56,260 nucleotides of DNA from a phage. Of the stretch, positions 1 through 56,260 are shown one piece after another. Location: the sequence record PX583170.1, one strand, 5' to 3'. How positions within the stretch are numbered: the stretch's first letter is position 1; the number at the start of each line of letters is the position of its first letter. A model generated the notes under the pieces. The model was not told the origin of the DNA. It did no database searches and was given only the letters and a program-made list of their open reading frames with translations. A program made the position numbers and the translations under genes.

Positions 1-135
1 CGGACTTAAAATACGGTCCCTACCCCAACTTTTTCCTACAGCCTATCGGCTTAATGATAACACCAAGTTAGGCGCTTCGCTTATGAGTCAAGGTCAAAGG
101 CAATCAGAGCACGCTGTTGTAACGAGCTAGTCTTA

Positions 136-157
136 CCATTAGTTGGTTGTGATTATG
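136..157 (+). promoter_or_regulatory. Promoter-motif copy P1 (candidate phage-RNAP promoter) upstream of the RNAP gene
   Basis: ccATTAGTTGGttgtgattatg; shares the CATTAGTTG core with 13 other sites. Confidence 0.4.
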
Positions 158-214
158 AATAGGCTACGCAAGTCTAATCCGTTTCAGTTAAATCATAATC
201 AATTGGAGACTATC

Positions 215-2329
215 ATGACTAATGAAGAATATCGTGCACTGGCTGCTGATGGCGCTCGCTTAAAAGAAGAAGGCCACGGTTGGAAAGACGTGCTTGATAC
301 GATGGACCGTTGCAACCAAATGGTTGATGAAATCACTACTGCTACACAATCCGAAACTAAAACCGAAACTAACTTGGAGACTCGCAAAATGACAACTATC
401 TCAACTCAAACTATCAAATCCGTTGTCCCTGCTATCACGGCTCTGGTATACCGTGCTAAAGAGAAACAGAACTACATGCAGCCTCAGACCTGTGCTATTG
501 CTGCTCTTGCAATCTTCAAGATGATGACCTCATTCACTCGTGATGATGTTGTCCCAGCCATTGCAATGGTTGAGCTGGCTTCTGCTTCTATTGCTGATGC
601 CAACCGTTATAACAACGATTTGAAAGCAATGCACTATGTTGACCCAGCTATCAACCTCATTGGTTTGGCTAAGCACTTTGGCTTCATTACCATGAACGAA
701 GACAAGTCATTCCAACAAACTGATACATGGGTTGAACTGGTTACAACCAAAGACACAGCAGTGCCATTCACTGAGCGTGTTACATCTGAATCTCGTCGCA
801 AGCCTTTCGTTAAAGGTGGCAAAGTTAAGCCATCCAAAACTTTGAAAGCTGCAATCGAATTCCTGCAAGATACTGAGTACCATGTGGAGACTGAGATGGT
901 TCGCATCATCCAGTCCATGCTTGAGCAACGTACCTACGGTGGTTTGCAGATGCCAGAAGCAATCCAGACTGAACTTCATGTTTGGAACAATGCTGTAGCA
1001 ATGATGAATCAGGATAAGCTGTATTCTGACTACTTTGCTGATAACCGTGGTCGCCTGTATCATGTAGCATGTGCTGGCCCTAACCCACAATCCTCTGACT
1101 TTGCTCGTTGCTTGTATTCTCACAATGTTGAGAACATCGTTAAGAAGTTTAACGAAGATGGTTCTACTACCATCGCATACAACATGTTCATGGCAGAGCT
1201 GGAAGATATTTCTGGTGGTGAATGGTGCAGTGCTAAGCGTTTAACTTATGTTGCTCAGAATCCAGCTGGTTCACTTGCTCGCATGATGAACATGCCTAAA
1301 GCTGAACGTCCTTCCAAGCCATTCACTTATGTTCGTCTGGCTCTGGATTGGTTCAAGTTTGAGACTACAGGTGAGTGCGATTCTCGTGTAGGCTTTGGCT
1401 TAGATGCTAAATGTTCTGGTACTCAATATCTGGCATTCATTGCTGGTAACATGGAAATGGCTCGTGCAACAGGTCTGGTTGATTCTGAGACTAAAGCATC
1501 TGACCCATACCAGTTATCTCTTCGTGAACTGTTGAAGTTACTCGACCGTTCTTCAATGAAGCCATCTCCTGAAATCATGGATGAGTTCTTGAATCCGAAA
1601 GCTGGTCGTAAGTTTATCAAAACTCCATACATGGCTATCCAATATGGTGGTGGTAAAGCAGCATTGACTGGTTCTTCTGACTTCATTAGCTACATGACAG
1701 AAGCTCTCCAGATTCCTATGGAGAAAGCTGAGGCATTTGCTGAACTGTGTGTAGAAGCAATCCATAACGCATTGGGTGCTAAGATTAACATGTTCATCGA
1801 GAAAGCTGCTGATGCTGCATACAATCGTTGTGTTGAACTTGGCAAAGAGTACATCACATATCGCCACACTGATGGTCAGGTTGTAATGAAGCCTTGCTTC
1901 CCATCTCGTGAAATCTGTGAGGCATTCAGCATTCGTGTTGATAGTCAAACTCGTGTTATCTTTGGTCAGATTCAGGAGAACAAGCCTTGGACCATTCGTG
2001 AGTCCAATCCAACTAAAGAAGAGTTCAAGCGTACCTTCGTTGTTAACTACATCCAAGGTATTGACGCATTGGTTGCTCGTACTGTTGCAGTTAAAGCTAA
2101 AGAAGCTGGTCTTCGTGGCTTTACTTCAATTCACGATTGTTTCCGTTGCTGCTTAGCTGATGCTCCACGTATGATGGAAGTTATTCGTGCAGCATATGTT
2201 GAAATCTTCGTAACCAACAATCAATTCGAGAATCTGTCTAAGCAACTCGGTGGCATTCAGATGTATCATGAGAACATCGTAACCGAAGAGCTTCTGATGA
2301 GCGAACATGCTTACTACTTCTGTCAATGA
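215..2329 (+). CDS. T7-like single-subunit DNA-dependent RNA polymerase (ORF opens at 143; ATG at 215 has SD ggaga)
   Basis: Motif A-like FGLDAKCSGTQYLAF (T7 DGSCSGIQHF), motif B-like KFIKTPYMAIQYGGG, motif C-like TSIHDCF (T7 HDSF). Shorter than T7 RNAP. Confidence 0.85.
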   Translation: MTNEEYRALAADGARLKEEGHGWKDVLDTMDRCNQMVDEITTATQSETKTETNLETRKMTTISTQTIKSVVPAITALVYRAKEKQNYMQPQTCAIAALAIFKMMTSFTRDDVVPAIAMVELASASIADANRYNNDLKAMHYVDPAINLIGLAKHFGFITMNEDKSFQQTDTWVELVTTKDTAVPFTERVTSESRRKPFVKGGKVKPSKTLKAAIEFLQDTEYHVETEMVRIIQSMLEQRTYGGLQMPEAIQTELHVWNNAVAMMNQDKLYSDYFADNRGRLYHVACAGPNPQSSDFARCLYSHNVENIVKKFNEDGSTTIAYNMFMAELEDISGGEWCSAKRLTYVAQNPAGSLARMMNMPKAERPSKPFTYVRLALDWFKFETTGECDSRVGFGLDAKCSGTQYLAFIAGNMEMARATGLVDSETKASDPYQLSLRELLKLLDRSSMKPSPEIMDEFLNPKAGRKFIKTPYMAIQYGGGKAALTGSSDFISYMTEALQIPMEKAEAFAELCVEAIHNALGAKINMFIEKAADAAYNRCVELGKEYITYRHTDGQVVMKPCFPSREICEAFSIRVDSQTRVIFGQIQENKPWTIRESNPTKEEFKRTFVVNYIQGIDALVARTVAVKAKEAGLRGFTSIHDCFRCCLADAPRMMEVIRAAYVEIFVTNNQFENLSKQLGGIQMYHENIVTEELLMSEHAYYFCQ

Positions 2330-2370
2330 TATTAATTGGTCAAGGATGACCACAAACTTGGAGACTTATA

Positions 2371-2571
2371 ATGAACATTCAACAAATCAATCAAATCGAA
2401 AACTGTTTCAATCCTCATCATACCTGTGACATGAGCAACTTATCTCGTCCTACAGTGGAGGAGACTAAAGACTTCTTAGAATTGTTAGCAGAATATAAAC
2501 AAGAATCGCATGTACTATTGCATGCATATTTGCACAATTCTGGATACTTTGATACAGAAATACCGTTCTGA
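2371..2571 (+). CDS. Hypothetical small protein (66 aa)
   Basis: ATG with SD ggaga 8 nt upstream; followed by a terminator. Confidence 0.5.
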   Translation: MNIQQINQIENCFNPHHTCDMSNLSRPTVEETKDFLELLAEYKQESHVLLHAYLHNSGYFDTEIPF

Positions 2572-2576
2572 TATTT

Positions 2577-2603
2577 GGGAGCTTCGGCTCCCTTTTCTTG
2601 TTT
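2577..2603 (+). terminator. Rho-independent terminator
   Basis: GGGAGC-ttcg-GCTCCC perfect 6-bp stem with UUCG loop, then ttttcttgttt. Confidence 0.75.
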
Positions 2604-2623
2604 CAACTAAGTCGCATAACTCA

Positions 2624-2645
2624 GCATTAGTTGTATGTGAATCTA
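2624..2645 (+). promoter_or_regulatory. Promoter-motif copy P2
   Basis: gCATTAGTTGtATGTGAATcta, directly after the terminator and 22 nt before the next gene. Confidence 0.5.
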
Positions 2646-2666
2646 ATAAACCATTTGGAGCATATC

Positions 2667-2834
2667 ATGTTTACAGTGACCTTAGTAACCTATTATGGCA
2701 AGCAAGTTTGTGAGAAGTTTGAGACTTTGAAAGAAGCCCGTGAGTTTGCAGCTCGTGAAGAGAATATTTATGTAGACTGTGAAATCACAGATGGTGATAA
2801 GCAGTATGAAGTTGTAGCTCCTACACTCAACTGA
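2667..2834 (+). CDS. Hypothetical small protein (55 aa; ORF opens at 2631)
   Basis: ATG at 2667 preceded by tttggag SD; the earlier TTG start lies inside the promoter motif. Confidence 0.45.
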   Translation: MFTVTLVTYYGKQVCEKFETLKEAREFAAREENIYVDCEITDGDKQYEVVAPTLN

Positions 2835-2848
2835 TTCCCAATATTCGG

Positions 2849-2858
2849 ACAATATTGT
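2849..2858. promoter_or_regulatory. Perfect 10-bp palindrome ACAATATTGT (operator-like)
   Basis: Self-complementary; flanked by aatattcgg and gcatgtaatattgt. Confidence 0.35.
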
Positions 2859-2884
2859 TGCATGTAATATTGTCCCGATATTCG

Positions 2885-2906
2885 ACATTAGTTGGATATG
2901 AAGTAA
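2885..2906 (+). promoter_or_regulatory. Promoter-motif copy P3
   Basis: aCATTAGTTGGATATGAAgtaa; followed by hairpin CGGAG-aaata-CTCCG at 2913..2927; no gene for ~1 kb downstream. Confidence 0.45.
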
Positions 2907-3277
2907 AGAATACGGAGAAATACTCCGCATGACATATTGAATCATTCTAGAAACATTCAGCATGTCAGCTTTGAGTTACAGTGTTGTAATGATGTGGCAA
3001 TCATTGAACTCCCTGGGTAGGCCACCTACAGTTCCAGCAACCATGACACAGAGTAGGAATATCTATCCGAAACTTGTACTTCACCTATAGCATGTCTATT
3101 AGCTACAGTATTGTTCCTTCTCCTATTATCAAGGCCCACCCACAAGCCGGGAGATAACTTTGACAAGACTGGAACTTTTGGACATGCTTCTTTCTTTCTA
3201 CAAGAATTTGAAAGAAGAGAAGAAGTCGGACTAAGCCTCTCGTTTTCACGCAGAAGCCGCCCCGATTTTGAGCAACA

Positions 3278-10250: not shown

Positions 10251-10529
10251 ATGAATTACGAAGATATTCCAAGAGAGTTGAATGCACTAGAGTCAAGAAC
10301 CATCCGTGCAGAGAATATTCTCCACCAGCACCTATCAATTAACGTAGGTGATGAAAAGAAGATGCAGTACACTATGGAACTTGACGATGTAGTCTACACT
10401 GTCAGTTACAACGAGAAGGCTGCGATTCTCAGTGCGCTTATCAAAGGTGGGAATGAGCGAATCAATCAACTAAAAATTCTGGACACAGAATTGAGAGGCA
10501 CTTGGGAGAAACTAAATGCAAAACGATAA
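10251..10529 (+). CDS. Hypothetical protein (ORF opens at 10185)
   Basis: ATG at 10251 with SD ggag. Confidence 0.4.
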   Translation: MNYEDIPRELNALESRTIRAENILHQHLSINVGDEKKMQYTMELDDVVYTVSYNEKAAILSALIKGGNERINQLKILDTELRGTWEKLNAKR

Positions 10530-11076
10530 CATTACTCAAGCAGTAGAACAGCTTAAGTCCTGGCGTAAAGATGAAACCTTATTGGTTCGTTTCTACACAG
10601 ACACATATACAGGTGAAAACAGCTCTAAATTTGTAGATGCGTGGATTGATGGACTGTCTTGGCGCCACTATGATTTCGACATGCGGGAGTATTTGCATGA
10701 AGAATACGGCATTGAGTATCCAGAATCCGGTACATATGACGTAATTGAATCAAACGAAGAAGATGTTACCGAAGTTTGTTTTGTCAATGGTCTGTTCAGC
10801 ATTCGTAAGTATGATAAGTTCAATGAGCTGCTTGTTGATACCGATTTGGATGTAATTCTTGCAGCATTACGTAGTGGTGATATTGATATTTTCACTGTGG
10901 ATGACTTGAACGATATGGTCATTGCTCGGTGCGACTCAATTGTAGACTACTTTAAAAATTATGATGGCATAGAAGTTCCAGACCATCTTCGTCCATATAT
11001 CGATTGGGATGCAGTTGCGAGAGATTACGGAAGTGACTACACTTTCTCCGAAGGGATACTATTCTCAAATGCGTGA
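10516..11076 (+). CDS. Highly acidic hypothetical protein (186 aa)
   Basis: Asp/Glu/Tyr-rich throughout; strongly net-negative by eye. Confidence 0.5.
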   Translation: MQNDNITQAVEQLKSWRKDETLLVRFYTDTYTGENSSKFVDAWIDGLSWRHYDFDMREYLHEEYGIEYPESGTYDVIESNEEDVTEVCFVNGLFSIRKYDKFNELLVDTDLDVILAALRSGDIDIFTVDDLNDMVIARCDSIVDYFKNYDGIEVPDHLRPYIDWDAVARDYGSDYTFSEGILFSNA

Positions 11077-11308
11077 TTTAAATATCGCTGAACTTGAGGC
11101 TGGATTGATTGTTCACCACCAGCCTCGAAACACTTTCTATCGTATTCTTGGTCCTACAAAGATTAAAACTCACTGCGGAAGTTGGGTGGATGGGTTTGCT
11201 TACCAAGAAGTGAAGAAGTACGGGGACCATACTTTCTTAAGTATTGATTCTTCTACTATCTACACACGACCGAAAGAGCTATTTGACTCAGACTGGAAAA
11301 CACTATAG
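11069..11308 (+). CDS. Hypothetical protein (ORF opens at 11009)
   Basis: ATG at 11069 overlaps upstream stop (ATGCGTGA). Confidence 0.4.
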   Translation: MRDLNIAELEAGLIVHHQPRNTFYRILGPTKIKTHCGSWVDGFAYQEVKKYGDHTFLSIDSSTIYTRPKELFDSDWKTL

Positions 11309-11377
11309 TTCCAGGCGGGTTTCTTCGAAGTGCCAAGCGGGTTTTGTGCTCGCATTGGCCTTCGGCTTTAGTCTGAA

Positions 11378-11399
11378 ACATTAGTGGGATTTGATTCGG
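11378..11399 (+). promoter_or_regulatory. Promoter-motif variant P8
   Basis: aCATTAGTgGGATttgattcgg. Confidence 0.35.
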
Positions 11400-11517
11400 A
11401 CCACTTAGGGAAGAAAGGCATTATACACTTATCGCCAAATGGGTGTCAAGCACTTTCTTCATTTATTTAATTTATTCTTATTATTCTTTTTGTTTGGAAT
11501 ATTGGAATAATTCTGAA

Positions 11518-11539
11518 ACATTAGTTGGAATTGAATTAG
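11518..11539 (+). promoter_or_regulatory. Promoter-motif copy P9
   Basis: aCATTAGTTGGAATTGAATtag, with prefix ttctgaaa shared with P8 and P12. Confidence 0.45.
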
Positions 11540-11654
11540 TGTAATTCTGTCTGTACTCTTTTCCATTAGCAATTGTAGAGGAAGTCCACTGCAATAAGCG
11601 CAGCCTCAAACAACCAAGTCTGGACAACTTGGGAAGAGAGTGCAGCACAAAATT

Positions 11655-11676
11655 ACATTAGTTGGAATTGAAGAAA
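11655..11676 (+). promoter_or_regulatory. Promoter-motif copy P10
   Basis: aCATTAGTTGGAATTGAAgaaa. Confidence 0.45.
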
Positions 11677-12309
11677 CAACATCAGATAATAACTTTGTAA
11701 CTCGGTAGACCGTTGCGGCCGCATCGTGCGAGAATGTTCGACTCATTCTACAAAGTTATTTTCGATGGAATGTTTCCATCATATACATTTATCTTTTAAC
11801 ATAGGCCAAAGGGCCGGAATACTTATTCGCAGAAAAGCTATTCACTTGTTATAGGCGATGTATTGGGATGAATTGGAACTAAATAAGCAAGCTGTTAGGG
11901 CTGAATAATTAGAGGGTTATGCCTCATGCTTATGTTAGTCATTCGAAAATAGGTTTGTGCCACAAGCCGCTGGTGCTCTGAGGAAGTCGGACAAACAGGG
12001 CTTAGAGTGGCATAATCCGCACAAAACCGCGCCACCAGCTATGCCAAAGCAGGTGGTTTGGGTGAATGTATTGGGAAGGGTTGCAAAGCCTCTGTGACAC
12101 GCCTGAGCCGCAAGGCGACGACACTCATGTGATTAGCGTATCGCACCCTAACGGGAGTAACCCTTCGCCAATGCAGTTATCCAGAATTGACACAAACGGC
12201 AGGCAGTGGCCCGATTTTCGGCCCTCCTGCGCTGCCCTGTGGCCTGTTTCACGGGCTAAAAGATGAGAAGAGAAGTCACAAACACTGAATCGAAAATTGG
12301 AGAGTTCCT

Positions 12310-12621
12310 ATGATTCGCAAGCATTCTGCTAAAGTTTTGACGTTGAGAAATGTAGTCAGGGGGGACCATGAGGTTTCCCTACACTATGTACTAATTGGTG
12401 GTCGTTGGTATTACAATGGCTCCTCATATATGGCCTTTATATCCTCCTCTGATAAGGACGGATTTTGGACCGATAAGGGTATCAAAGGTGTGTTAGAAGA
12501 TAGCTTCCCACTCACGTTAAAGGAAGTAAAAGACGTCTTCTACCACGGCCCAAACAAGTCCATGCAAATCGCAACTCGCGAGTGGACAACTAATCAAGAA
12601 GTTTACGGAGTCCCATTTTGA
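12310..12621 (+). CDS. Hypothetical protein (103 aa)
   Basis: ATG with SD ttggagag. Confidence 0.5.
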   Translation: MIRKHSAKVLTLRNVVRGDHEVSLHYVLIGGRWYYNGSSYMAFISSSDKDGFWTDKGIKGVLEDSFPLTLKEVKDVFYHGPNKSMQIATREWTTNQEVYGVPF

Positions 12622-13707: not shown

Positions 13708-14046
13708 ATGGCTAAGATTGTAACCGTAACTCAGTACGAAGCTAACGATGGTTCCCTGTTCCTGACCGAAGCAGAGTGTAATGCACATGACTTCAAACTG
13801 GAAAACGGTGCTAAAATTGAGAAAGCTGCCGAAGCGTACCTGAATACCGTTGGTGCTATCGACCGTTCTCGCTCCATGCAGAAGAACACCATCGAGCAGT
13901 TCCTGGCATTCTACCTGCCGTGGGTTGAAGCTGGCGAGCCAGAAGTTGAGCGTACTAAGTTCGATACTCCGAAAGAAGCTAAAGTTGCTGACGCAAGTGT
14001 TGCCGAAGCTGCCGAAGCTGCTGTTGAAGAAGCTCCGGTATTCTAA
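13708..14046 (+). CDS. Hypothetical acidic protein with host-like codon usage (112 aa)
   Basis: SD aaggta; CTG/CGT/GAA/CCG-rich; acidic C-terminus ending EEAPVF. Confidence 0.55.
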   Translation: MAKIVTVTQYEANDGSLFLTEAECNAHDFKLENGAKIEKAAEAYLNTVGAIDRSRSMQKNTIEQFLAFYLPWVEAGEPEVERTKFDTPKEAKVADASVAEAAEAAVEEAPVF

Positions 14047-14413
14047 GTTGCCGATGGCAAACTTGAGAGACTAAGCTAAATCGATCTGGCATGCACTGGA
14101 AGATCGTCCGGTGCTGCCTTGAACCCGCTCTGAAAGGAAGAGTGGGCTTCAATGAGCATTCTTGTGATTAGAGTTGGGAGGAAGGCCGATGCCCAAGCTC
14201 ATGGCCCAGACGAGAGTGTTCATTGAAGTTATTTCAATTTGTGCATAATTCAAACACCAGTGCATGAGCCTTCGACGGAAGGCAATGTTGGGAAATTTGT
14301 TGTGTACAAATTGAAGTAGTTTTCTGAGTCTTACGACGGGCCTAAACTGCCTGGAGTTATTGCGACTGTTTTATTCATTTAAAATAAATGCAAATGATTC
14401 TGAAATGCGAGTT

Positions 14414-15147: not shown

Positions 15148-15240
15148 GGACGAGTAGCTCAGAAGGTCTGCTCCAGAGCTTAGTCAGGTAGAGCAATCTG
15201 TTCGACAGATGTGTCGTTGGTTCGAATCCAACCTCGTCCA
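15148..15240 (+). tRNA. tRNA-like gene, unusually long (93 nt); anticodon tentatively CAG (Leu)
   Basis: Perfect 7-bp acceptor stem GGACGAG/CTCGTCC, canonical T-arm GTTGG-TTCGAAT-CCAAC, discriminator A; loop GTCAGGT at 15183..15189; the D-arm could not be folded by eye. Confidence 0.5.
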
Positions 15241-15269
15241 CCCACTTTCAACAATAACATGGAGTCCTC

Positions 15270-17567: not shown

Positions 17568-19331
17568 ATGAACGTCAAGCAATGTGTGGCTAAGATTAAG
17601 CACGATGTACCAGACTGTAAATCCACATCTGGCAAGTCCTTACAGGTTTGGTTGAATGTCGATGAAGCTGGTAATAAGAACTTCTCTGGTTACTGCTTTG
17701 CGTGTGGCGTTCTAGTACCAAATCCTTATGGCAATAATCCGGAGAACATTCCAGAGATTAAAGTCAAGACTCCAGAAGAAATTCAGGAAGAAGTTGATGA
17801 AATCACTGCTTGTCCTCCGTTTGATTTAACCCATCGCAGTATTGAGCCAGAATTCTGGAAAGCTGCTGGTGTTCGACTTCTGTATTCAGAGTATGATGGA
17901 AAGACTCCAAATGCTTTGGCACATGGCTATACCAAAAATGGTAAACTTGTTCGTTGGAAGATTAAACTTCTGAACAAGAAAGTTATGTGGTCGGTTGGCG
18001 ACACCCAGGGTAACGACCCTTACAACTGGATGGCTGCAAAAGCAATTGGCGGTAAGACACTGTTCATCACAGAAGGTGAAGAAGACTGCATCGCATTGCG
18101 TCAAATCCTCAAAACTATGAACCGTGGTGGTGCATATGAAGATTTGGATTTTGCTGTAATTAGTTTGAGTGATGGAAGTGATTCCGTACACAAATGTTTG
18201 TCACCAGTTGCAGAAGAAATTAAGCAACGTTGGGAGCAGGTTGTTATCGTATTTGATGATGATGAACCTGGACGTAAAGCTGCAAAAGAAGCGTGCCGAT
18301 TGTTGCCTGGTGCAATGATTGCAACACTTCCAGCTAACGATGCCAACGATTGTTTGAAGCGTGGCTTGCTAAAAGCTACTCAGTCTGCTGTTGTATTTCG
18401 TGCTGCTCGTCCTCTTCCTACAGCACTTGTCAACAAAGAACTTCTTATGGAGGAACTTGATGACGAGGTTGAACAAGGCGTGGACTATCCTTGGCCCAAG
18501 TTAACCGACTTAATGTTTGGTCAGCGTCGAGCCGAAGTTATTACAATCGGTGGTGCAGAAGGTGGTGGTAAAACTACGCTGTCCCGTCAGATTGTGCATC
18601 ACAACATTACCAAGCATGATTGGGGAGTGTTTACTGCATACATGGAGGAAACTCCTATAGAGACATTGCGCCGAATGGCTGGCCTCAATGACAACTTGCC
18701 ATATTGGGAACCTGCGTTTACTCGTGAAGACCCTCGATATGATGAAGCTAAGTTCCGTCAAACTGCTGCGAAGATGCTTCGTAACATGGAGATTTGGGAC
18801 CGCAAGCAAGCTGGAGAAGACCCTTATGAAACCTGGGATGGGTTAAAGACGATTCTTCGTCAGATTGGACCAGACATTGATATGTTTGTCCTTGATAACT
18901 TAACCTACTTATCGGAAGGGATTTCTGCCTCAGAGAAGAACGACTTCTTAGGTAAGCTGTATGCAGATATTACTAAGCTGGCAGACCAATACCAGTTCCA
19001 TGTGAATATCTTGTCGCACCTTAACCCTGTGGCAAAAGGTCAACGACCTCATGAGGATGGTGGCCGTATTAAGAAGTCAGACTTTACTGGCTCCCGTGCT
19101 GCTGCTAAATATTCTCATGGTATGTTCGGCTTTGAGCGTAATAGCCAGGCAGTTGACCCAAACTGCTCTATTATTCGTTCCATTAAGGCTCGTAAGAGTG
19201 GTAAAACAGAAGGCTTCAAGACGTATTATGACACCGAATCTGGTCGAATTATTCAACGTTCTTGGGACGACTCGCTGTTCGAAACTAAAGAGATTGTTCA
19301 GCTTACTAAGAAGAACGGTCCACATCAATAA
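17568..19331 (+). CDS. Bifunctional primase-helicase (T7 gp4-like)
   Basis: Cys pair CFACG, TOPRIM-like FITEGEEDC and VFDDDEPGRKAA, Walker A GGAEGGGKTT, Walker B MFVLDN. Confidence 0.85.
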   Translation: MNVKQCVAKIKHDVPDCKSTSGKSLQVWLNVDEAGNKNFSGYCFACGVLVPNPYGNNPENIPEIKVKTPEEIQEEVDEITACPPFDLTHRSIEPEFWKAAGVRLLYSEYDGKTPNALAHGYTKNGKLVRWKIKLLNKKVMWSVGDTQGNDPYNWMAAKAIGGKTLFITEGEEDCIALRQILKTMNRGGAYEDLDFAVISLSDGSDSVHKCLSPVAEEIKQRWEQVVIVFDDDEPGRKAAKEACRLLPGAMIATLPANDANDCLKRGLLKATQSAVVFRAARPLPTALVNKELLMEELDDEVEQGVDYPWPKLTDLMFGQRRAEVITIGGAEGGGKTTLSRQIVHHNITKHDWGVFTAYMEETPIETLRRMAGLNDNLPYWEPAFTREDPRYDEAKFRQTAAKMLRNMEIWDRKQAGEDPYETWDGLKTILRQIGPDIDMFVLDNLTYLSEGISASEKNDFLGKLYADITKLADQYQFHVNILSHLNPVAKGQRPHEDGGRIKKSDFTGSRAAAKYSHGMFGFERNSQAVDPNCSIIRSIKARKSGKTEGFKTYYDTESGRIIQRSWDDSLFETKEIVQLTKKNGPHQ

Positions 19332-19396: not shown

Positions 19397-21331
19397 GTGT
19401 TGTATCCTTGGGAAAATATGTATGCCAGTGACATTGAAACAACTGGTCTGTTGGAGCAAATGCGCAAGCAAGCTGCACCACGTCTTCACAACATCGGATA
19501 TATTGATGTTCTAACTCGTGAAGAAACTGTAATAGAGTGGACCGACAGAAAATCTATCCAGGCATTTCTGGACACAGGCCCAACATTAATCATGCACAAC
19601 GGCGCAACCTTTGACTTTGAAGCACTGAGGTTCCTTGGTTACGACGTTTCAAAATGTACCTTAATTGATACTTTGTTTATCAGTTGGTATCTGCAACCTC
19701 GTCGTGTTAAGCACGGCTTAGAAGGTTACGGCGAAGAGTTTGGCGTGCCAAAACCAGTCATTGAAGATTGGGAAAATCAAACTCAAGAAGAATACAACCA
19801 TCGTGTGATGGAAGACTGCAAGATTCAGTTGAAGCTGTGGGAACAGCAATACATTCAACTCTTGAAGATTTATAAATCTCCTAGCGAAGTTAAGCGCTTC
19901 GTTGAATACCTGATGACAAAAGCTCGTCAACAAGTTATTCAACAACGTACTCGCTGGAAGCTGAACATTGAGAAGGCATTGGCGTTTAAGGCCAAGCTGG
20001 AACCAATGATTAAAGAGAAGACGGACGCATTGGAAGCATCAATGCCGCGTGTTCCGGAATATGTTATCAAAACCCGTCCAGCTAAATGCCACAAGATGAA
20101 CGGGCAACTGTCTGCCACTGGGATTAAGTGGAAGGCTATTTGTGATGCAAACGGTTTGGATTGGAAAGACCCAGACCTGGCTATCAAAGTTCTTAAAGGT
20201 TATAAGAAGCCTAATGCTGGTTCCCATGTTCAAATTAAGGATTGGTTGTTCAGCTTAGGCTGGGAACCAGAAACCTTTAAGTTTGACCGCAACAAGGAAA
20301 CGGGTGAAACTCGCCAGATTCCTCAAATCACTGTGAAGGATGAAGATGGCAATCCTGAAATATGTCCGAGCTTGCATAAGCTGGCGGAAAGAAACCCCGA
20401 CTCTGGTATTCAACATCTTATTGGGATGGGCGTGTATAAACACCGTCTGTCTGTTGTTAATGGCTTCCTTCGCGACGTCGATGAAGATGGGTTCCTTACT
20501 GCACGATGCGGTGGCCTTACCAATACTTTACGCCTTAAACATCGCGAACTTGTTAACCTCCCTTCTATTCGTGTATTTGGCGGTGAAGAACTGCGTTCAA
20601 TGTTGGAAGCGTGGCGCGAAGACTACGAACAGTTAGGTTCTGACTTGTGTTCTTTGGAAGACCGCTGTAAGCACCACTTCCAATGGATGTATGACCCTGA
20701 ATACGTTAAGAAGCAGTTGGCACCAGACTATGATGCTCACCTTGCAATTGGCGTAATTGGTGGATTTATTACTGAACAGGAATCTCAGGACCACAAGGAC
20801 GGAATTAAGAAGTGTAAACAACGTCCAATGTTTAAGACCACAAACTATGCTTGTCAGTATGGTGCTGGTGTACCAACTGTAGCCCGTTCTGCTGGCTGTG
20901 ACCAGACCACTGCTGCACGACTGCATAAAGCATATTGGGACTTGAACTGGTCTATTAAAGAGATTGCTGCAAACACCAAAGTTATCACAGTTGATGGTCA
21001 GATGTGGCAACAGAATCCAGTAAACAAATTCTGGTATTCGTTGCGTACAGAGAAAGACCGCTTCTCCACATTGTGTCAGGGTACTGGTGCATATGTGTTT
21101 GATGTTTGGTGTAACAACATCATTGCAATTTGTAACGAACGTTGGGGCTGTGACCCGCTTCTGTCTGGACAATTCCACGATGAATTGATTCTCCAAGTTA
21201 AGAAAGGTTTCCGTGATTTATGGACGGACTTGCTTAATGAAGCAATGGACCGAACCAACAAAGAACTTAAACTTAACCGTGATTGTGCATGTGATGTACA
21301 GTTCGGTGATAACTACGCAGAGATTCACTAA
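19397..21331 (+). CDS. Family A DNA polymerase with 3'-5' exonuclease domain
   Basis: Exo I DIETTGL; motif B-like RPMFKTTNYACQYGAG; motif C-like QFHDELIL. Confidence 0.85.
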   Translation: MLYPWENMYASDIETTGLLEQMRKQAAPRLHNIGYIDVLTREETVIEWTDRKSIQAFLDTGPTLIMHNGATFDFEALRFLGYDVSKCTLIDTLFISWYLQPRRVKHGLEGYGEEFGVPKPVIEDWENQTQEEYNHRVMEDCKIQLKLWEQQYIQLLKIYKSPSEVKRFVEYLMTKARQQVIQQRTRWKLNIEKALAFKAKLEPMIKEKTDALEASMPRVPEYVIKTRPAKCHKMNGQLSATGIKWKAICDANGLDWKDPDLAIKVLKGYKKPNAGSHVQIKDWLFSLGWEPETFKFDRNKETGETRQIPQITVKDEDGNPEICPSLHKLAERNPDSGIQHLIGMGVYKHRLSVVNGFLRDVDEDGFLTARCGGLTNTLRLKHRELVNLPSIRVFGGEELRSMLEAWREDYEQLGSDLCSLEDRCKHHFQWMYDPEYVKKQLAPDYDAHLAIGVIGGFITEQESQDHKDGIKKCKQRPMFKTTNYACQYGAGVPTVARSAGCDQTTAARLHKAYWDLNWSIKEIAANTKVITVDGQMWQQNPVNKFWYSLRTEKDRFSTLCQGTGAYVFDVWCNNIIAICNERWGCDPLLSGQFHDELILQVKKGFRDLWTDLLNEAMDRTNKELKLNRDCACDVQFGDNYAEIH

Positions 21332-52701: not shown

Positions 52702-53168
52702 AAGAGTAATATTAGGAATGCGTAAAGTTCAAAACCAAATGGTACATGGTCGGTCAACTGTACCTCCTTCGGAGAAGGTACCTGGATAGAAATTCGTTCA
52801 TGGTCGGTCAGCTGTATCTAGCCGAAATTTGTTCGAACAGTTGTCTGACTATGAAATAAATTTTTTTTTATAATTTTTTTTTTATTTTTAAATATTGCTA
52901 CAGAATTAATGAGACTAGAATTCGTAACAAAGCTACGAGACTCGAATTGTTTCAATATTAACGAGACTCAATCTGTGACAATATTATAATTTTTATTTTT
53001 GGGCCAGCGGGGAGGGGAAGCCCAACGTCCTATCGGACTTAAAATACGGTCCCTACCCCAACTTTTTCCTACAGCCTATCGGCTTAATGATAACACCAAG
53101 TTAGGCGCTTCGCTTATGAGTCAAGGTCAAAGGCAATCAGAGCACGCTGTTGTAACGAGCTAGTCTTA

Positions 53169-53190
53169 CCATTAGTTGGTTGTGATTATG
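53169..53190 (+). promoter_or_regulatory. Promoter-motif copy P1 (right repeat copy)
   Basis: Identical to 136..157. Confidence 0.4.
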
Positions 53191-53247
53191 AATAGGCTAC
53201 GCAAGTCTAATCCGTTTCAGTTAAATCATAATCAATTGGAGACTATC

Positions 53248-55362
53248 ATGACTAATGAAGAATATCGTGCACTGGCTGCTGATGGCGCTCGCTTAAAAGA
53301 AGAAGGCCACGGTTGGAAAGACGTGCTTGATACGATGGACCGTTGCAACCAAATGGTTGATGAAATCACTACTGCTACACAATCCGAAACTAAAACCGAA
53401 ACTAACTTGGAGACTCGCAAAATGACAACTATCTCAACTCAAACTATCAAATCCGTTGTCCCTGCTATCACGGCTCTGGTATACCGTGCTAAAGAGAAAC
53501 AGAACTACATGCAGCCTCAGACCTGTGCTATTGCTGCTCTTGCAATCTTCAAGATGATGACCTCATTCACTCGTGATGATGTTGTCCCAGCCATTGCAAT
53601 GGTTGAGCTGGCTTCTGCTTCTATTGCTGATGCCAACCGTTATAACAACGATTTGAAAGCAATGCACTATGTTGACCCAGCTATCAACCTCATTGGTTTG
53701 GCTAAGCACTTTGGCTTCATTACCATGAACGAAGACAAGTCATTCCAACAAACTGATACATGGGTTGAACTGGTTACAACCAAAGACACAGCAGTGCCAT
53801 TCACTGAGCGTGTTACATCTGAATCTCGTCGCAAGCCTTTCGTTAAAGGTGGCAAAGTTAAGCCATCCAAAACTTTGAAAGCTGCAATCGAATTCCTGCA
53901 AGATACTGAGTACCATGTGGAGACTGAGATGGTTCGCATCATCCAGTCCATGCTTGAGCAACGTACCTACGGTGGTTTGCAGATGCCAGAAGCAATCCAG
54001 ACTGAACTTCATGTTTGGAACAATGCTGTAGCAATGATGAATCAGGATAAGCTGTATTCTGACTACTTTGCTGATAACCGTGGTCGCCTGTATCATGTAG
54101 CATGTGCTGGCCCTAACCCACAATCCTCTGACTTTGCTCGTTGCTTGTATTCTCACAATGTTGAGAACATCGTTAAGAAGTTTAACGAAGATGGTTCTAC
54201 TACCATCGCATACAACATGTTCATGGCAGAGCTGGAAGATATTTCTGGTGGTGAATGGTGCAGTGCTAAGCGTTTAACTTATGTTGCTCAGAATCCAGCT
54301 GGTTCACTTGCTCGCATGATGAACATGCCTAAAGCTGAACGTCCTTCCAAGCCATTCACTTATGTTCGTCTGGCTCTGGATTGGTTCAAGTTTGAGACTA
54401 CAGGTGAGTGCGATTCTCGTGTAGGCTTTGGCTTAGATGCTAAATGTTCTGGTACTCAATATCTGGCATTCATTGCTGGTAACATGGAAATGGCTCGTGC
54501 AACAGGTCTGGTTGATTCTGAGACTAAAGCATCTGACCCATACCAGTTATCTCTTCGTGAACTGTTGAAGTTACTCGACCGTTCTTCAATGAAGCCATCT
54601 CCTGAAATCATGGATGAGTTCTTGAATCCGAAAGCTGGTCGTAAGTTTATCAAAACTCCATACATGGCTATCCAATATGGTGGTGGTAAAGCAGCATTGA
54701 CTGGTTCTTCTGACTTCATTAGCTACATGACAGAAGCTCTCCAGATTCCTATGGAGAAAGCTGAGGCATTTGCTGAACTGTGTGTAGAAGCAATCCATAA
54801 CGCATTGGGTGCTAAGATTAACATGTTCATCGAGAAAGCTGCTGATGCTGCATACAATCGTTGTGTTGAACTTGGCAAAGAGTACATCACATATCGCCAC
54901 ACTGATGGTCAGGTTGTAATGAAGCCTTGCTTCCCATCTCGTGAAATCTGTGAGGCATTCAGCATTCGTGTTGATAGTCAAACTCGTGTTATCTTTGGTC
55001 AGATTCAGGAGAACAAGCCTTGGACCATTCGTGAGTCCAATCCAACTAAAGAAGAGTTCAAGCGTACCTTCGTTGTTAACTACATCCAAGGTATTGACGC
55101 ATTGGTTGCTCGTACTGTTGCAGTTAAAGCTAAAGAAGCTGGTCTTCGTGGCTTTACTTCAATTCACGATTGTTTCCGTTGCTGCTTAGCTGATGCTCCA
55201 CGTATGATGGAAGTTATTCGTGCAGCATATGTTGAAATCTTCGTAACCAACAATCAATTCGAGAATCTGTCTAAGCAACTCGGTGGCATTCAGATGTATC
55301 ATGAGAACATCGTAACCGAAGAGCTTCTGATGAGCGAACATGCTTACTACTTCTGTCAATGA
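53248..55362 (+). CDS. T7-like single-subunit RNA polymerase, second copy
   Basis: Protein identical to 215..2329. Confidence 0.85.
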   Translation: MTNEEYRALAADGARLKEEGHGWKDVLDTMDRCNQMVDEITTATQSETKTETNLETRKMTTISTQTIKSVVPAITALVYRAKEKQNYMQPQTCAIAALAIFKMMTSFTRDDVVPAIAMVELASASIADANRYNNDLKAMHYVDPAINLIGLAKHFGFITMNEDKSFQQTDTWVELVTTKDTAVPFTERVTSESRRKPFVKGGKVKPSKTLKAAIEFLQDTEYHVETEMVRIIQSMLEQRTYGGLQMPEAIQTELHVWNNAVAMMNQDKLYSDYFADNRGRLYHVACAGPNPQSSDFARCLYSHNVENIVKKFNEDGSTTIAYNMFMAELEDISGGEWCSAKRLTYVAQNPAGSLARMMNMPKAERPSKPFTYVRLALDWFKFETTGECDSRVGFGLDAKCSGTQYLAFIAGNMEMARATGLVDSETKASDPYQLSLRELLKLLDRSSMKPSPEIMDEFLNPKAGRKFIKTPYMAIQYGGGKAALTGSSDFISYMTEALQIPMEKAEAFAELCVEAIHNALGAKINMFIEKAADAAYNRCVELGKEYITYRHTDGQVVMKPCFPSREICEAFSIRVDSQTRVIFGQIQENKPWTIRESNPTKEEFKRTFVVNYIQGIDALVARTVAVKAKEAGLRGFTSIHDCFRCCLADAPRMMEVIRAAYVEIFVTNNQFENLSKQLGGIQMYHENIVTEELLMSEHAYYFCQ

Positions 55363-55403
55363 TATTAATTGGTCAAGGATGACCACAAACTTGGAGACTT
55401 ATA

Positions 55404-55604
55404 ATGAACATTCAACAAATCAATCAAATCGAAAACTGTTTCAATCCTCATCATACCTGTGACATGAGCAACTTATCTCGTCCTACAGTGGAGGAGACTA
55501 AAGACTTCTTAGAATTGTTAGCAGAATATAAACAAGAATCGCATGTACTATTGCATGCATATTTGCACAATTCTGGATACTTTGATACAGAAATACCGTT
55601 CTGA
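55404..55604 (+). CDS. Hypothetical small protein, second copy
   Basis: Identical to 2371..2571. Confidence 0.5.
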   Translation: MNIQQINQIENCFNPHHTCDMSNLSRPTVEETKDFLELLAEYKQESHVLLHAYLHNSGYFDTEIPF

Positions 55605-55609
55605 TATTT

Positions 55610-55636
55610 GGGAGCTTCGGCTCCCTTTTCTTGTTT
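55610..55636 (+). terminator. Rho-independent terminator, second copy
   Basis: Identical to 2577..2603. Confidence 0.75.
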
Positions 55637-55656
55637 CAACTAAGTCGCATAACTCA

Positions 55657-55678
55657 GCATTAGTTGTATGTGAATCTA
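55657..55678 (+). promoter_or_regulatory. Promoter-motif copy P2 (right repeat copy)
   Basis: Identical to 2624..2645. Confidence 0.5.
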
Positions 55679-55699
55679 ATAAACCATTTGGAGCATATC

Positions 55700-55867
55700 A
55701 TGTTTACAGTGACCTTAGTAACCTATTATGGCAAGCAAGTTTGTGAGAAGTTTGAGACTTTGAAAGAAGCCCGTGAGTTTGCAGCTCGTGAAGAGAATAT
55801 TTATGTAGACTGTGAAATCACAGATGGTGATAAGCAGTATGAAGTTGTAGCTCCTACACTCAACTGA
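55700..55867 (+). CDS. Hypothetical small protein, second copy
   Basis: Identical to 2667..2834. Confidence 0.45.
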   Translation: MFTVTLVTYYGKQVCEKFETLKEAREFAAREENIYVDCEITDGDKQYEVVAPTLN

Positions 55868-55917
55868 TTCCCAATATTCGGACAATATTGTTGCATGTAA
55901 TATTGTCCCGATATTCG

Positions 55918-55939
55918 ACATTAGTTGGATATGAAGTAA
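55918..55939 (+). promoter_or_regulatory. Promoter-motif copy P3 (right repeat copy)
   Basis: Identical to 2885..2906. Confidence 0.45.
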
Positions 55940-56260
55940 AGAATACGGAGAAATACTCCGCATGACATATTGAATCATTCTAGAAACATTCAGCATGTCA
56001 GCTTTGAGTTACAGTGTTGTAATGATGTGGCAATCATTGAACTCCCTGGGTAGGCCACCTACAGTTCCAGCAACCATGACACAGAGTAGGAATATCTATC
56101 CGAAACTTGTACTTCACCTATAGCATGTCTATTAGCTACAGTATTGTTCCTTCTCCTATTATCAAGGCCCACCCACAAGCCGGGAGATAACTTTGACAAG
56201 ACTGGAACTTTTGGACATGCTTCTTTCTTTCTACAAGAATTTGAAAGAAGAGAAGAAGTC

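Follow-up and report, generated by a model that had tools for sequence, protein, structure and literature searches.

The window analysed here is the whole 56,260-nucleotide stretch of phage DNA in sequence record PX583170.1. Between positions 11309 and 12309 it contains a gap, which is flanked by a gene of 99 amino acids (aa) ending at 11308 and a gene of 103 aa starting at 12310. We regard this gap, with modest confidence, as a conserved non-coding boundary between the block containing an ArdA-like gene and the next operon, where the phage RNA polymerase would produce a structured RNA that serves as the 5′ leader of that operon. In the proposed mechanism, transcription arriving from the left would end near 11330-11373, and the phage single-subunit RNA polymerase would re-initiate at three tandem promoter-like motifs. 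The transcript of the third motif would start at about 11673 and would be a multi-domain, heavily base-paired RNA of about 640 nucleotides (nt). Because no terminator is found before the ribosome-binding site of the next gene, this RNA would form the 5′ leader of the operon. A long stem would enclose its triphosphate 5′ end and so stabilise the RNA, and its last hairpin would occlude the Shine-Dalgarno sequence and the start codon, so that translation of the first gene would be gated by structure or by a binding factor. The long irregular stems and a module resembling the tRNA elbow may act as processing or recognition signals of the RNase III/RNase P type, and processing at these sites may release stable RNA pieces. 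A palindromic apical loop may allow two RNA molecules to kiss, as in other large ornate phage RNAs.

Conservation and compensatory base changes

The preliminary description of this sequence had seen no convincing gene between 11309 and 12309. The comparison with related phages agrees: the overlapping open reading frames (ORFs) are all 66 aa or shorter, and none is kept across the genus. In BLASTN searches, 51 phage records matched positions 11200-12400 with 84-98% identity. [quoted passage not shown] Four lineages carry the gap in synteny, namely Carltongylesvirus, Sabourvirus 4HA13, Aeromonas phage phiA050 and Loessnervirus (Erwinia/Pantoea phages). It is conserved at least as well as its neighbours: nucleotide identity to 14 relatives amounts to 94-98% at 11309-11534, the best-conserved DNA of the neighbourhood, and to 85-97% at 11857-12309, compared with 78-91% for the ArdA gene and with 74-96% and 69-79% for the upstream and the downstream gene, respectively. 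The protein encoded downstream shares 56-73% identity within the genus, and a search for related loci with this protein found only three close relatives.

Alignment A1 comprises 18 genus members and extends from GAAACAACATC (11673, right after the third motif) to the next ATG codon. Long invariant stretches alternate in it with segments that are replaced wholesale and keep their length and pairing. The distance between GAAACAACATC and the ribosome-binding site stays at 617-638 nt in genus members other than phiEcoM-GJ1, despite the cassette swaps. The RNAalifold consensus of the 18 sequences contains 167 pairs, 29 of them with compensatory changes. Standard pairs occupy 98.8% of the 3,004 cells and 29 pairs are changed on both sides, values that were reached by none of 500 shuffles. 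When the 3′ partners were slid by 1-3 columns, 36-45% of the cells were paired and 3-5 pairs carried double changes. The minimum free energy of 11672-12309 lies 4.7 standard deviations below that of shuffled sequences (z = -4.7), none of 20 shuffles folding as well.

Similar evidence was obtained outside the genus. A covariance model of the last 135 nt (R1) scored 91 bits in 4HA13 and 31 bits in phiA050 (E 2e-4). In alignment A4, which is based on R1 and includes these two phages, 95.2% of the cells are paired and 12 of 25 pairs are changed on both sides (0 of 500 shuffles match this). With 4HA13 and phiA050 added, 17 of the 55 pairs in domains B and C, described below, are compensatory. When the last 235-275 nt were folded by energy separately for the window, 4HA13, phiA050 and three Loessnervirus phages, a common layout emerged from largely different sequences. 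It consists of a long helix with a branched tip, an ACAAACG linker and two hairpins, followed by GUCACA and the tail with the ribosome-binding site. The pattern of substitution shows that the helices of an RNA are under selection. Its loops and junctions are near-invariant, its peripheral hairpins are swapped as cassettes, and the architecture is common to the four lineages. The comparisons thus show a conserved, structured non-coding element that has the shape of a transcript and ends at a ribosome-binding site.

The conservation across at least four lineages and the extensive compensatory base-pair changes support the earlier suggestion of a promoter-proximal non-coding RNA. The extent of this RNA has to be corrected: it would not be limited to the GC-rich 350 base pairs (bp), as had been thought, and would instead span about 640 nt from the third promoter-like motif to the next start codon. 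The GC-richer last part of the gap is real but modest, with a GC content of 0.49-0.535 at 11900-12300 against about 0.44 genome-wide and 0.32-0.36 at 11400-11700; a value of 0.51 is also reached at 13800-14200. The rise reflects stacked helices and not a foreign origin. Rfam 15 was searched at the gathering score with the whole window, at E up to 10 with 11200-12400 and at E up to 1 with eight relatives. No family matched: there was no gathering-score hit inside the region, and only chance matches appeared at relaxed E.

The promoter-like motif ACATTAGTTGGAATTGA precedes the RNA in three copies on the plus strand: P8 at 11378..11394, reading ACATTAGTGGGATTTGA with two mismatches, and the exact copies P9 at 11518..11534 and P10 at 11655..11671, with a spacing of 140 and 137 nt. 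The structured RNA begins directly after P10. The three copies in AT-rich DNA had already been noticed, and their occurrence is far beyond chance: with up to three mismatches the motif has 7 matches in the window against 0.26 expected, and its core CATTAGTTGGA has 17 copies on the plus strand and 2 on the minus strand against 1.2 expected. A motif of about 20 bp with a strand bias, located mostly upstream of genes in a phage that encodes the polymerase, is what would be expected of promoters for a single-subunit RNA polymerase. In phiEcoM-GJ1 and SA91KD, 'putative phage promoters' are annotated that match the copies at 11378 and 11518; the former copy is 'putative phage promoter 4' in phiEcoM-GJ1. 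In the same phage an annotated 20-nt promoter ends directly before GAAACAACATC. One further promoter-like motif (137-147) overlaps the TTG that opens the polymerase ORF in the ORF listing.

The segment directly behind the upstream gene (11309..11373, plus strand) contains the direct repeats CCAGGCGGGTTT / CCAAGCGGGTTT (repeat family D4) and a hairpin. It is nearly invariant in 15 relatives and is annotated as a rho-independent terminator in SA91KD; a simple terminator scan did not call it. This segment is probably the end of the upstream, ArdA-containing transcription unit.

Several points weigh against a leader RNA made by the phage polymerase. The tested structure was derived from the same alignment that was used for the test, and much of the 'covariation' stems from a few inherited cassette swaps and not from numerous separate events. 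Within the genus, no variation is seen in the 5′ leader stem, helix H1, most of domains C and D and the anti-Shine-Dalgarno pairing; invariant helices neither support nor contradict their pairing. Model R1 did not detect the E domain of Loessnervirus, where homology is a matter of sequence reading and independent folds. In phiEcoM-GJ1 an HNH endonuclease ORF (L004 1359-1760, annotated 'SbcC') stands in place of domain D, and the viability of this phage implies that domain D is dispensable or replaceable. The predicted stability of the initiation hairpin is low, at -6 to -9 kcal/mol. The ICTV profile describes the promoters of Chaseviridae as not yet identified (PMC12842549), and for this reason the name 'promoter-like motif' is used here. 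No RNA sequencing of any Chaseviridae infection was found in the literature, so that we infer the start, the ends and the processing of the transcript. No paper on the region was found either; a fragment of it may be listed in the supplements of a catalogue of viral structured RNAs (PMC10690425).

Domains of the predicted RNA

All domains lie on the plus strand. The RNA is predicted to begin with domain A (11673..11781), whose 5′ leader GAAACAACAUC (11673-11683) pairs with GAUGGAAUGUUUC (11765-11777). The leader stem continues into an 11-bp acceptor-like stem formed by 11689-11699 and 11749-11759. At the tip, a small GGUAG loop is accompanied by an arm of 5 bp, whose 7-nt loop carries the palindrome TGCGGCCGCA (11714-11723), and by a canonical T-arm, GAAUG-UUCGACU-CAUUC, at 11732-11748. 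An alternative local hairpin, GAUGGAA-UGU-UUCCAUC, is available at 11765-11781. Compensatory changes affect 13 of the 31 pairs in helices 1-6. The module exists in at least four unrelated sequence versions, across which the stems covary and the GUUCRA of the T-loop and the GUAG stay unchanged. Helix 6 has the form of a tRNA T-arm, a 5-bp stem with a 7-nt loop U-U-C-R-A-N-N; in the 18 sequences its G-U-U-C-R-A is invariant and its stem covaries.

Domain A resembles tRNA and tRNA-like modules (YrlA Y RNA, mascRNA-type signals, viral tRNA-like structures) in what reads as a canonical T-arm (5 bp and UUCGAnU) and as a 5-nt connector of variable-loop length. Further features in common are an arm of 5 bp whose loop has 7 nt, a GG-containing segment like a D-loop, and acceptor-like and T stems that stack coaxially. 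It differs from tRNA in its acceptor stem, which exceeds 20 bp and has neither CCA nor a free 3′ end, in its D stem, which has 2-3 bp or is absent, and in its palindromic 'anticodon' loop without U33. In YrlA the basal stem is the anticodon stem, whereas here it is the acceptor stem. A tRNA gene was considered and rejected, since there is no U33/purine-37 anticodon loop and no free CCA, the loops read CGGCCGC, GGUACCA and GUGCACA, and the acceptor-like stem continues. ARAGORN called nothing in the window or in 17 loci at default settings and nothing at 90% thresholds; odd partial calls appeared at 70-80% thresholds in some domain A variants only. Positions 11200-12400 had no RF00005 match at E up to 10.

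The apical 7-nt loop of domain A consists of a 6-nt palindrome and one additional base, a purine except in 4HA13. This holds for 4HA13 and for 16 of the 18 genus members examined, the palindrome being absent from MLP1 and PYps23T. The palindromes are CGGCCG, GGUACC and GUGCAC, depending on the variant, and GGCGCC in 4HA13. Since a random 7-mer would carry one with a chance of about 1/32, the occurrence of four different palindromes at one site argues for selection for self-complementarity. The HIV-1 dimerisation initiation site also uses GUGCAC. The loop is similar to that site in its GC-rich 6-nt apical palindrome with a flanking purine, and one variant has the very sequence GUGCAC. It differs in having 7 nt instead of 9 and in belonging to the transcript of a DNA phage, where dimerisation is a sequence signature only.

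Cassette b (11535..11662), a second stem-tipped unit located behind P9, is closed by a stem between 11534-11550 and 11647-11663 (inverted repeat I2) and has a pseudoknot-type tip. Its GUCCA (11585-11589) is complementary to UGGAC (11621-11625) in the loop of the hairpin CCAAGU/ACUUGG, and CUGC/GCAG forms a second hairpin. In alignment A6 the hairpins of cassette b differ yet stay paired in phiA050, SSEM1 and PYps16N, and the pseudoknot arms are invariant. The cassette is missing from many relatives; in phiA050 a pseudoknot-type module sits where the window has the tRNA-like module.

Domain A is followed by a variable linker (11782..11856), which contains an invariant hairpin, GGCC-AAAG-GGCC (11804-11815), and a swapped hairpin with three versions in the genus. 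Domain B (11857..11952) is a predicted three-way junction, AAGCA-AGCUGUUAGGGCU-GAAUAAUU-hairpin-UGCUU, with a conserved 7-nt bulge AUUGGAA (helices 10-14). It is the most widely conserved piece, present in Escherichia, Yersinia, Aeromonas, Erwinia and Pantoea phages. From the sequence of the Loessnervirus phages, domain B is followed by a hairpin with a U-tract and then by a further promoter motif, which would leave D-E as the leader. This arrangement implies that B-C and D-E are separable units.

Domain C (11953..12021) is a long hairpin ending in UCUGA-GGAAG-UCGGA (11977-11991) with a GRAAG loop. The stem of the tip covaries in four lineages: outside the window the tip reads UUGGA-GAAAG-UCCAA in phiEcoM-GJ1, UUGAA-GGAAG-UUCAA in 4HA13 and GCUGA-GAAAG-UCAGC in phiA050. 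A CsrA sponge, for which the many GGA motifs were considered, was dropped, the GRAAG loop being GAAAG in phiA050 and phiEcoM-GJ1. A relation to RNase P RNA was also rejected: GAGGAAGUC..ACAGGGCUUA is superficially similar to CR-I/CR-V, but it forms a local GRAAG hairpin that covaries as such, and it gave no Rfam hit. The preliminary description had pointed to GCTGGTG and CACCAGC as paired segments. They are indeed complementary and lie at 11969-11975 and 12033-12039, the latter not at 12024 as had been given. As a structural pair they did not hold: neither segment varies, GCUGGUG is paired locally in the consensus fold, and a CACCAGC-type partner is missing downstream in phiA050. Their pairing is possible as a genus-specific pseudoknot.

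Domain D (12058..12184) is built on a 27-bp irregular helix between 12058-12084 and 12157-12184 (helices 19-21). The same long helix, built from different sequences, came out when 4HA13, phiA050 and three Loessnervirus phages were folded independently. The tip at 12098-12140 is hypervariable with constant length, occurs in four unrelated versions and is closed by UGUGA/UCGCA; the domain also holds a hairpin, CCC-UAAC-GGG (12146-12155). A direct repeat, ATGTATTGGGA(T/A)G.., at 11858-11878 and 12066-12086 forms the 5′ strand of the basal helices of domains B and D, which suggests an internal duplication as the origin of these domains. The linker and domain E (12185..12256) contain the conserved ACAAACG and the hairpins E1 (12198-12236) and E2 (12242-12256).

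Segments of constant length that exist in three to four unrelated versions among near-identical phages were observed at 11690-11760, 12098-12140 and 12205-12232. The mosaic distribution of these versions implies frequent recombination of RNA cassettes.

The 3′ part of the RNA comprises the tail and the initiation hairpin (12257..12317), and it includes the conserved GUCACA. The next gene has its start codon at 12310. UGAAUCG (12286-12292) is predicted to pair with UGAUUCG (12311-12317, codons 1-3), and the Shine-Dalgarno GGA (12299-12301) with UCC of the spacer (12306-12308). The predicted unpaired probability of the GGA is 0.07-0.25. By prediction, the Shine-Dalgarno sequence and the start codon are therefore paired in a conserved hairpin, as in structure-gated initiation. 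The outer arms are swapped for other complements in phiA050 (GCUCGU/AUGAGC) and SNUABM27 (CAUUUGC/GCAAAUG); in SSEM1 the hairpin is not predicted. Pairing of the UCC with the Shine-Dalgarno sequence would explain why the spacer UUCCU is conserved across genera. Like the MS2 replicase operator and the fourU/ROSE elements, the hairpin pairs the Shine-Dalgarno sequence and the first codons, and in other lineages its arms and the coding sequence change in concert. It differs from the MS2 operator and from RNA thermometers in its low predicted stability, and no binding protein is known for it. Better growth at 20-30 degrees C has been reported for the genus (PMC6266442, PMC13340011), which offers a possible link to an RNA thermometer only.

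Alternative explanations

The RNA, or pieces cut from it, may act in trans as a stable, self-associating 'ornate' RNA that mimics the tRNA elbow. In the accessory region beside the anti-restriction gene, it could then provide a scaffold or cage, or could decoy host factors that bind or cleave tRNA. This explanation partly overlaps with that of the leader RNA, and we hold it to be possible but tentative. It draws on the size and modularity of the RNA, on its invariant loops and junctions, on the T-loop GUUCRA and the GUAG loop, which are invariant across unrelated module variants, and on the ArdA gene 600 bp upstream. The apical loop switches palindromes, and it is such switching that supports intermolecular kissing loops in OLE and GOLLD; the linker region of GOLLD sometimes carries tRNAs (bioRxiv 10.1101/2024.12.08.627333). 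A function in trans is opposed by the absence of a terminator or a defined 3′ end before the next gene, by MLP1 and PYps23T, which have no palindrome, and by phiA050, where another module stands at this position. The apical palindrome of a hairpin might equally be a feature of the DNA.

A still more speculative extension is a new, Chaseviridae-specific class of ornate RNAs of about 640 nt, which would combine a tRNA-elbow mimic, a pseudoknot cassette and a kissing loop, would form dimers or particles and would also act as a leader. GOLLD and ROOL form striking assemblies, and the phages and prophages carrying them are hard to manipulate. We know of no protein partner or function of the GOLLD/ROOL/OLE-type RNAs. 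The predicted RNA is similar to GOLLD, ROOL and OLE in its length of several hundred nt, its many helices, its invariant loops and junctions and its variable peripheral stems. Phage origin, an association with tRNA or a tRNA-like module and a palindrome-switching apical loop are further common traits. In contrast to them, it is found in virulent coliphages with a T7-like polymerase, its multimerisation is a sequence signature only, and it has no 3′ boundary of its own but runs into a coding gene, so that it would also be a 5′ leader. The covariance models of GOLLD, ROOL, OLE and raiA gave no hit at the thresholds stated above for Rfam. If this class is real, its RNA particles could be a decoy or scaffold for host tRNA-, RNA-processing or defence factors, and its occurrence in easily grown virulent Escherichia coli phages would make the biology of ornate RNAs genetically testable.

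The DNA upstream of the RNA offers a further explanation. Segment 11309-11534, perhaps together with the RNA as a primer, could be a T7-like primary replication origin, where the DNA would be opened or primed by transcription, with a role like that of ColE1 RNA II for the structured RNA. We consider this rather doubtful. The T7 primary origin consists of phage promoters followed by an AT-rich segment. Here, the tandem motifs at 11378 and 11518 flank an AT-rich block of 58 bp (11455..11512, GC 0.32) with repeated TTGGAAT units, and the T7-type layout of phage promoters beside an AT-rich segment is present as a sequence arrangement only. The block is conserved in the genus and recognisable in 4HA13 and phiA050, where the arrangement recurs, and 11309-11534 is, as given above, the best-conserved DNA of the neighbourhood (94-98%). 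Genes for a T7-like RNA polymerase, for a gp4-like primase-helicase and for a DNA polymerase of family A are also present in the phage. With T7 the region further shares its location, at about 20% of the genome from the left end and ahead (upstream) of the genes for replication; its tandem motifs and AT-rich block are reminiscent of the primary origin/class II promoter region with tandem phi1.1A/phi1.1B, and the long irregular stems of the predicted transcript are reminiscent of T7 RNase III sites. It differs in that its promoters are putative, their order is promoter, AT-rich block, promoter, promoter, a perfect host-type promoter lies on the opposite strand, and a structured RNA of 640 nt follows, which T7 lacks.

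Against an origin, the cumulative GC skew shows no inflection at the region, although this monotonic curve is uninformative as an origin marker, and none has been mapped in the family. The downstream compensatory changes point to selection on pairing in RNA or single strands, which an origin alone leaves unexplained. Tandem promoters with AT-rich upstream DNA would also fit simply strong promoters. By analogy with T7, the AT-rich block is a candidate for a DNA-unwinding or upstream element. The upstream 230 bp, comprising the motifs, the AT-rich block and the host-type promoter, probably also act at the DNA level, and such a role as an origin or transcription switch is plausible and compatible with the RNA role.

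The host-type promoter is a sigma-70 consensus on the minus strand (11420..11449; TTGACA, 18 nt, TATAAT, 12/12 matches) with a palindromic spacer. It points leftward, opposite to every phage gene. The hexamers are kept with different palindromic spacers in 4HA13 (L005 about 1086-1118) and phiA050 (L006 about 1855-1890). In Loessnervirus (L026 about 1600-1625) the same two hexamers are just 8 nt apart, so that a promoter role cannot alone account for the element. In RNA of the plus strand the element lies within the hairpin GAAGAAAG...CUUUCUUC.

It is very improbable that the region is a decayed or frameshifted protein gene or a set of small-protein genes. The observations that would fit are short ORFs annotated in several relatives, a 40-codon GTG frame of equal length in the window (11957-12076) and phiA050 (L006 2562-2681), and AGGTGG before ATG 12066. 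The last of these lies 9 nt upstream of the ORF 12066..12266, which had been described as lacking a ribosome-binding site. The limits of that ORF were found only in the window and one metagenome contig, the ORF being absent or differently bounded in the other 16 relatives, and ORF limits in general vary from genome to genome. Although phiA050 and the window differ there by about 27% in nucleotides, the 40-codon frame spans domain C in both. Within the genus it is split by a 1-nt indel (alignment column 419), and 4HA13 has, on reading its sequence, the conserved hairpin in another frame and an early stop. The frame is therefore probably a by-product of conserved helix lengths. Substitutions cluster as paired helix changes, and a frameshifted known protein gene, which would have spoken against a non-coding RNA, was not found, no protein-family search having been made with the short ORFs. 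The only protein gene seen inside the region is the nested HNH endonuclease ORF of phiEcoM-GJ1. Inconsistent 'hypothetical protein' ORFs of 31-92 aa are annotated across the region in L002, L003, L010, L012, L013 and L017. The short 'hypothetical proteins' annotated in the region are most likely annotation artefacts.

Equally improbable is that the GC-rich core is a captured host, plasmid or mobile-element fragment, as had also been suggested, or a self-splicing intron with a homing endonuclease: the GC content is locally raised, and the HNH ORF lies within the structured region of phiEcoM-GJ1 as in many group I introns, but BLASTN against 5,426 E. coli genomes and 72,556 plasmids found no match, the region is syntenic in all relatives, viral, metagenome and genome collections yielded only Chaseviridae and three chance coding hits, no Rfam intron hit was obtained at E up to 10, flanking exons are missing, a conserved ribosome-binding site and start codon belong to the downstream gene itself, and the endonuclease ORF replaces domain D in one lineage only. 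A group I intron as such was rejected, there being no upstream exon ORF, no Rfam intron match and no HNH ORF outside phiEcoM-GJ1. Exact-pattern scans with AAGCAAGCTGWTAGGGCTGA or CAGTTATCCAGAATTGACAC found only Chaseviridae and the chance coding hits L033, L035 and L037, and thus added little diversity.

Genome context and significance

A terminal repeat of 3,227 bp is present twice, at 1-3227 and 53034-56260. The ORF at 143-2329 equals that at 53176-55362, and the motif at 2885 equals the motif at 55918. With both copies of the repeat present, the window is a complete Carltongylesvirus genome. The T7-like RNA polymerase gene (143-2329) lies inside the repeat and therefore occurs in two copies in the window. 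The other genes referred to above are those of the ArdA-like anti-restriction protein (10516-11076), the gp4-like primase-helicase (17568-19331) and the family A DNA polymerase (19397-21331). Throughout the window, ORFs of at least 150 aa that are not overlapped by a larger ORF are found on the plus strand only. Pfam and PHROGs gave no functional clue for the flanking genes of the gap.

A tRNA-like gene with an extra insertion lies at about 15150-15245. It scored 27.9 bits with the Rfam tRNA model, which has a gathering score of 29, and was not called by ARAGORN; in ST32 it is annotated as a 95-bp tRNA-Arg (PMC6266442). In two Pantoea/Erwinia Loessnervirus phages (L027 4829-5018 and L026 4868-5001) a weak match to the tag part of transfer-messenger RNA (tmRNA) was seen, with E 2e-4 and below the gathering score. 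The tag-like match GCAAACGAUAAUGAAAUGCGAGCAGCCGCUUAA reads A-N-D-N-E-M-R-A-A-A-stop and lies in L026 near an annotated tRNA-Ser. Judging from its sequence, this element is possibly a phage tmRNA-like element.

The gap is also an insertion hot spot, whose inserts lie behind a copy of the promoter-like motif. They are the HNH endonuclease ORF of phiEcoM-GJ1 (L004 1359-1760), another ORF at about 100-495 in the oriented metagenome contig L034, a small CxxC...CxxC protein (L002 1630-2013; annotated sizes vary) and a 45-aa ORF (L006 2000-2137). In relatives that keep a further motif copy, each small ORF behind the second motif has its own motif, and the region can thus be viewed as an array of 'promoter plus payload' cassettes beside an anti-restriction gene.

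To judge from sequence comparison, the structured RNA would represent a new class of large structured phage RNAs that is unrelated in sequence to GOLLD and ROOL and absent from Rfam 15. The short 'hypothetical proteins' that GenBank lists in the region can be flagged as probably spurious. The region is a candidate for the early-to-middle transcription switch and for the replication origin of the family, neither of which has yet been defined. Laboratory E. coli supports the growth of the lytic coliphages in which the RNA is found (ST32, phiEcoM-GJ1, Mangalitsa and relatives). Their natural variants, including cassette swaps at three positions, the replacement of domain D by an endonuclease and other modules at the stem tips, make the roles of the RNA in processing, translation control, oligomerisation and phage fitness testable.

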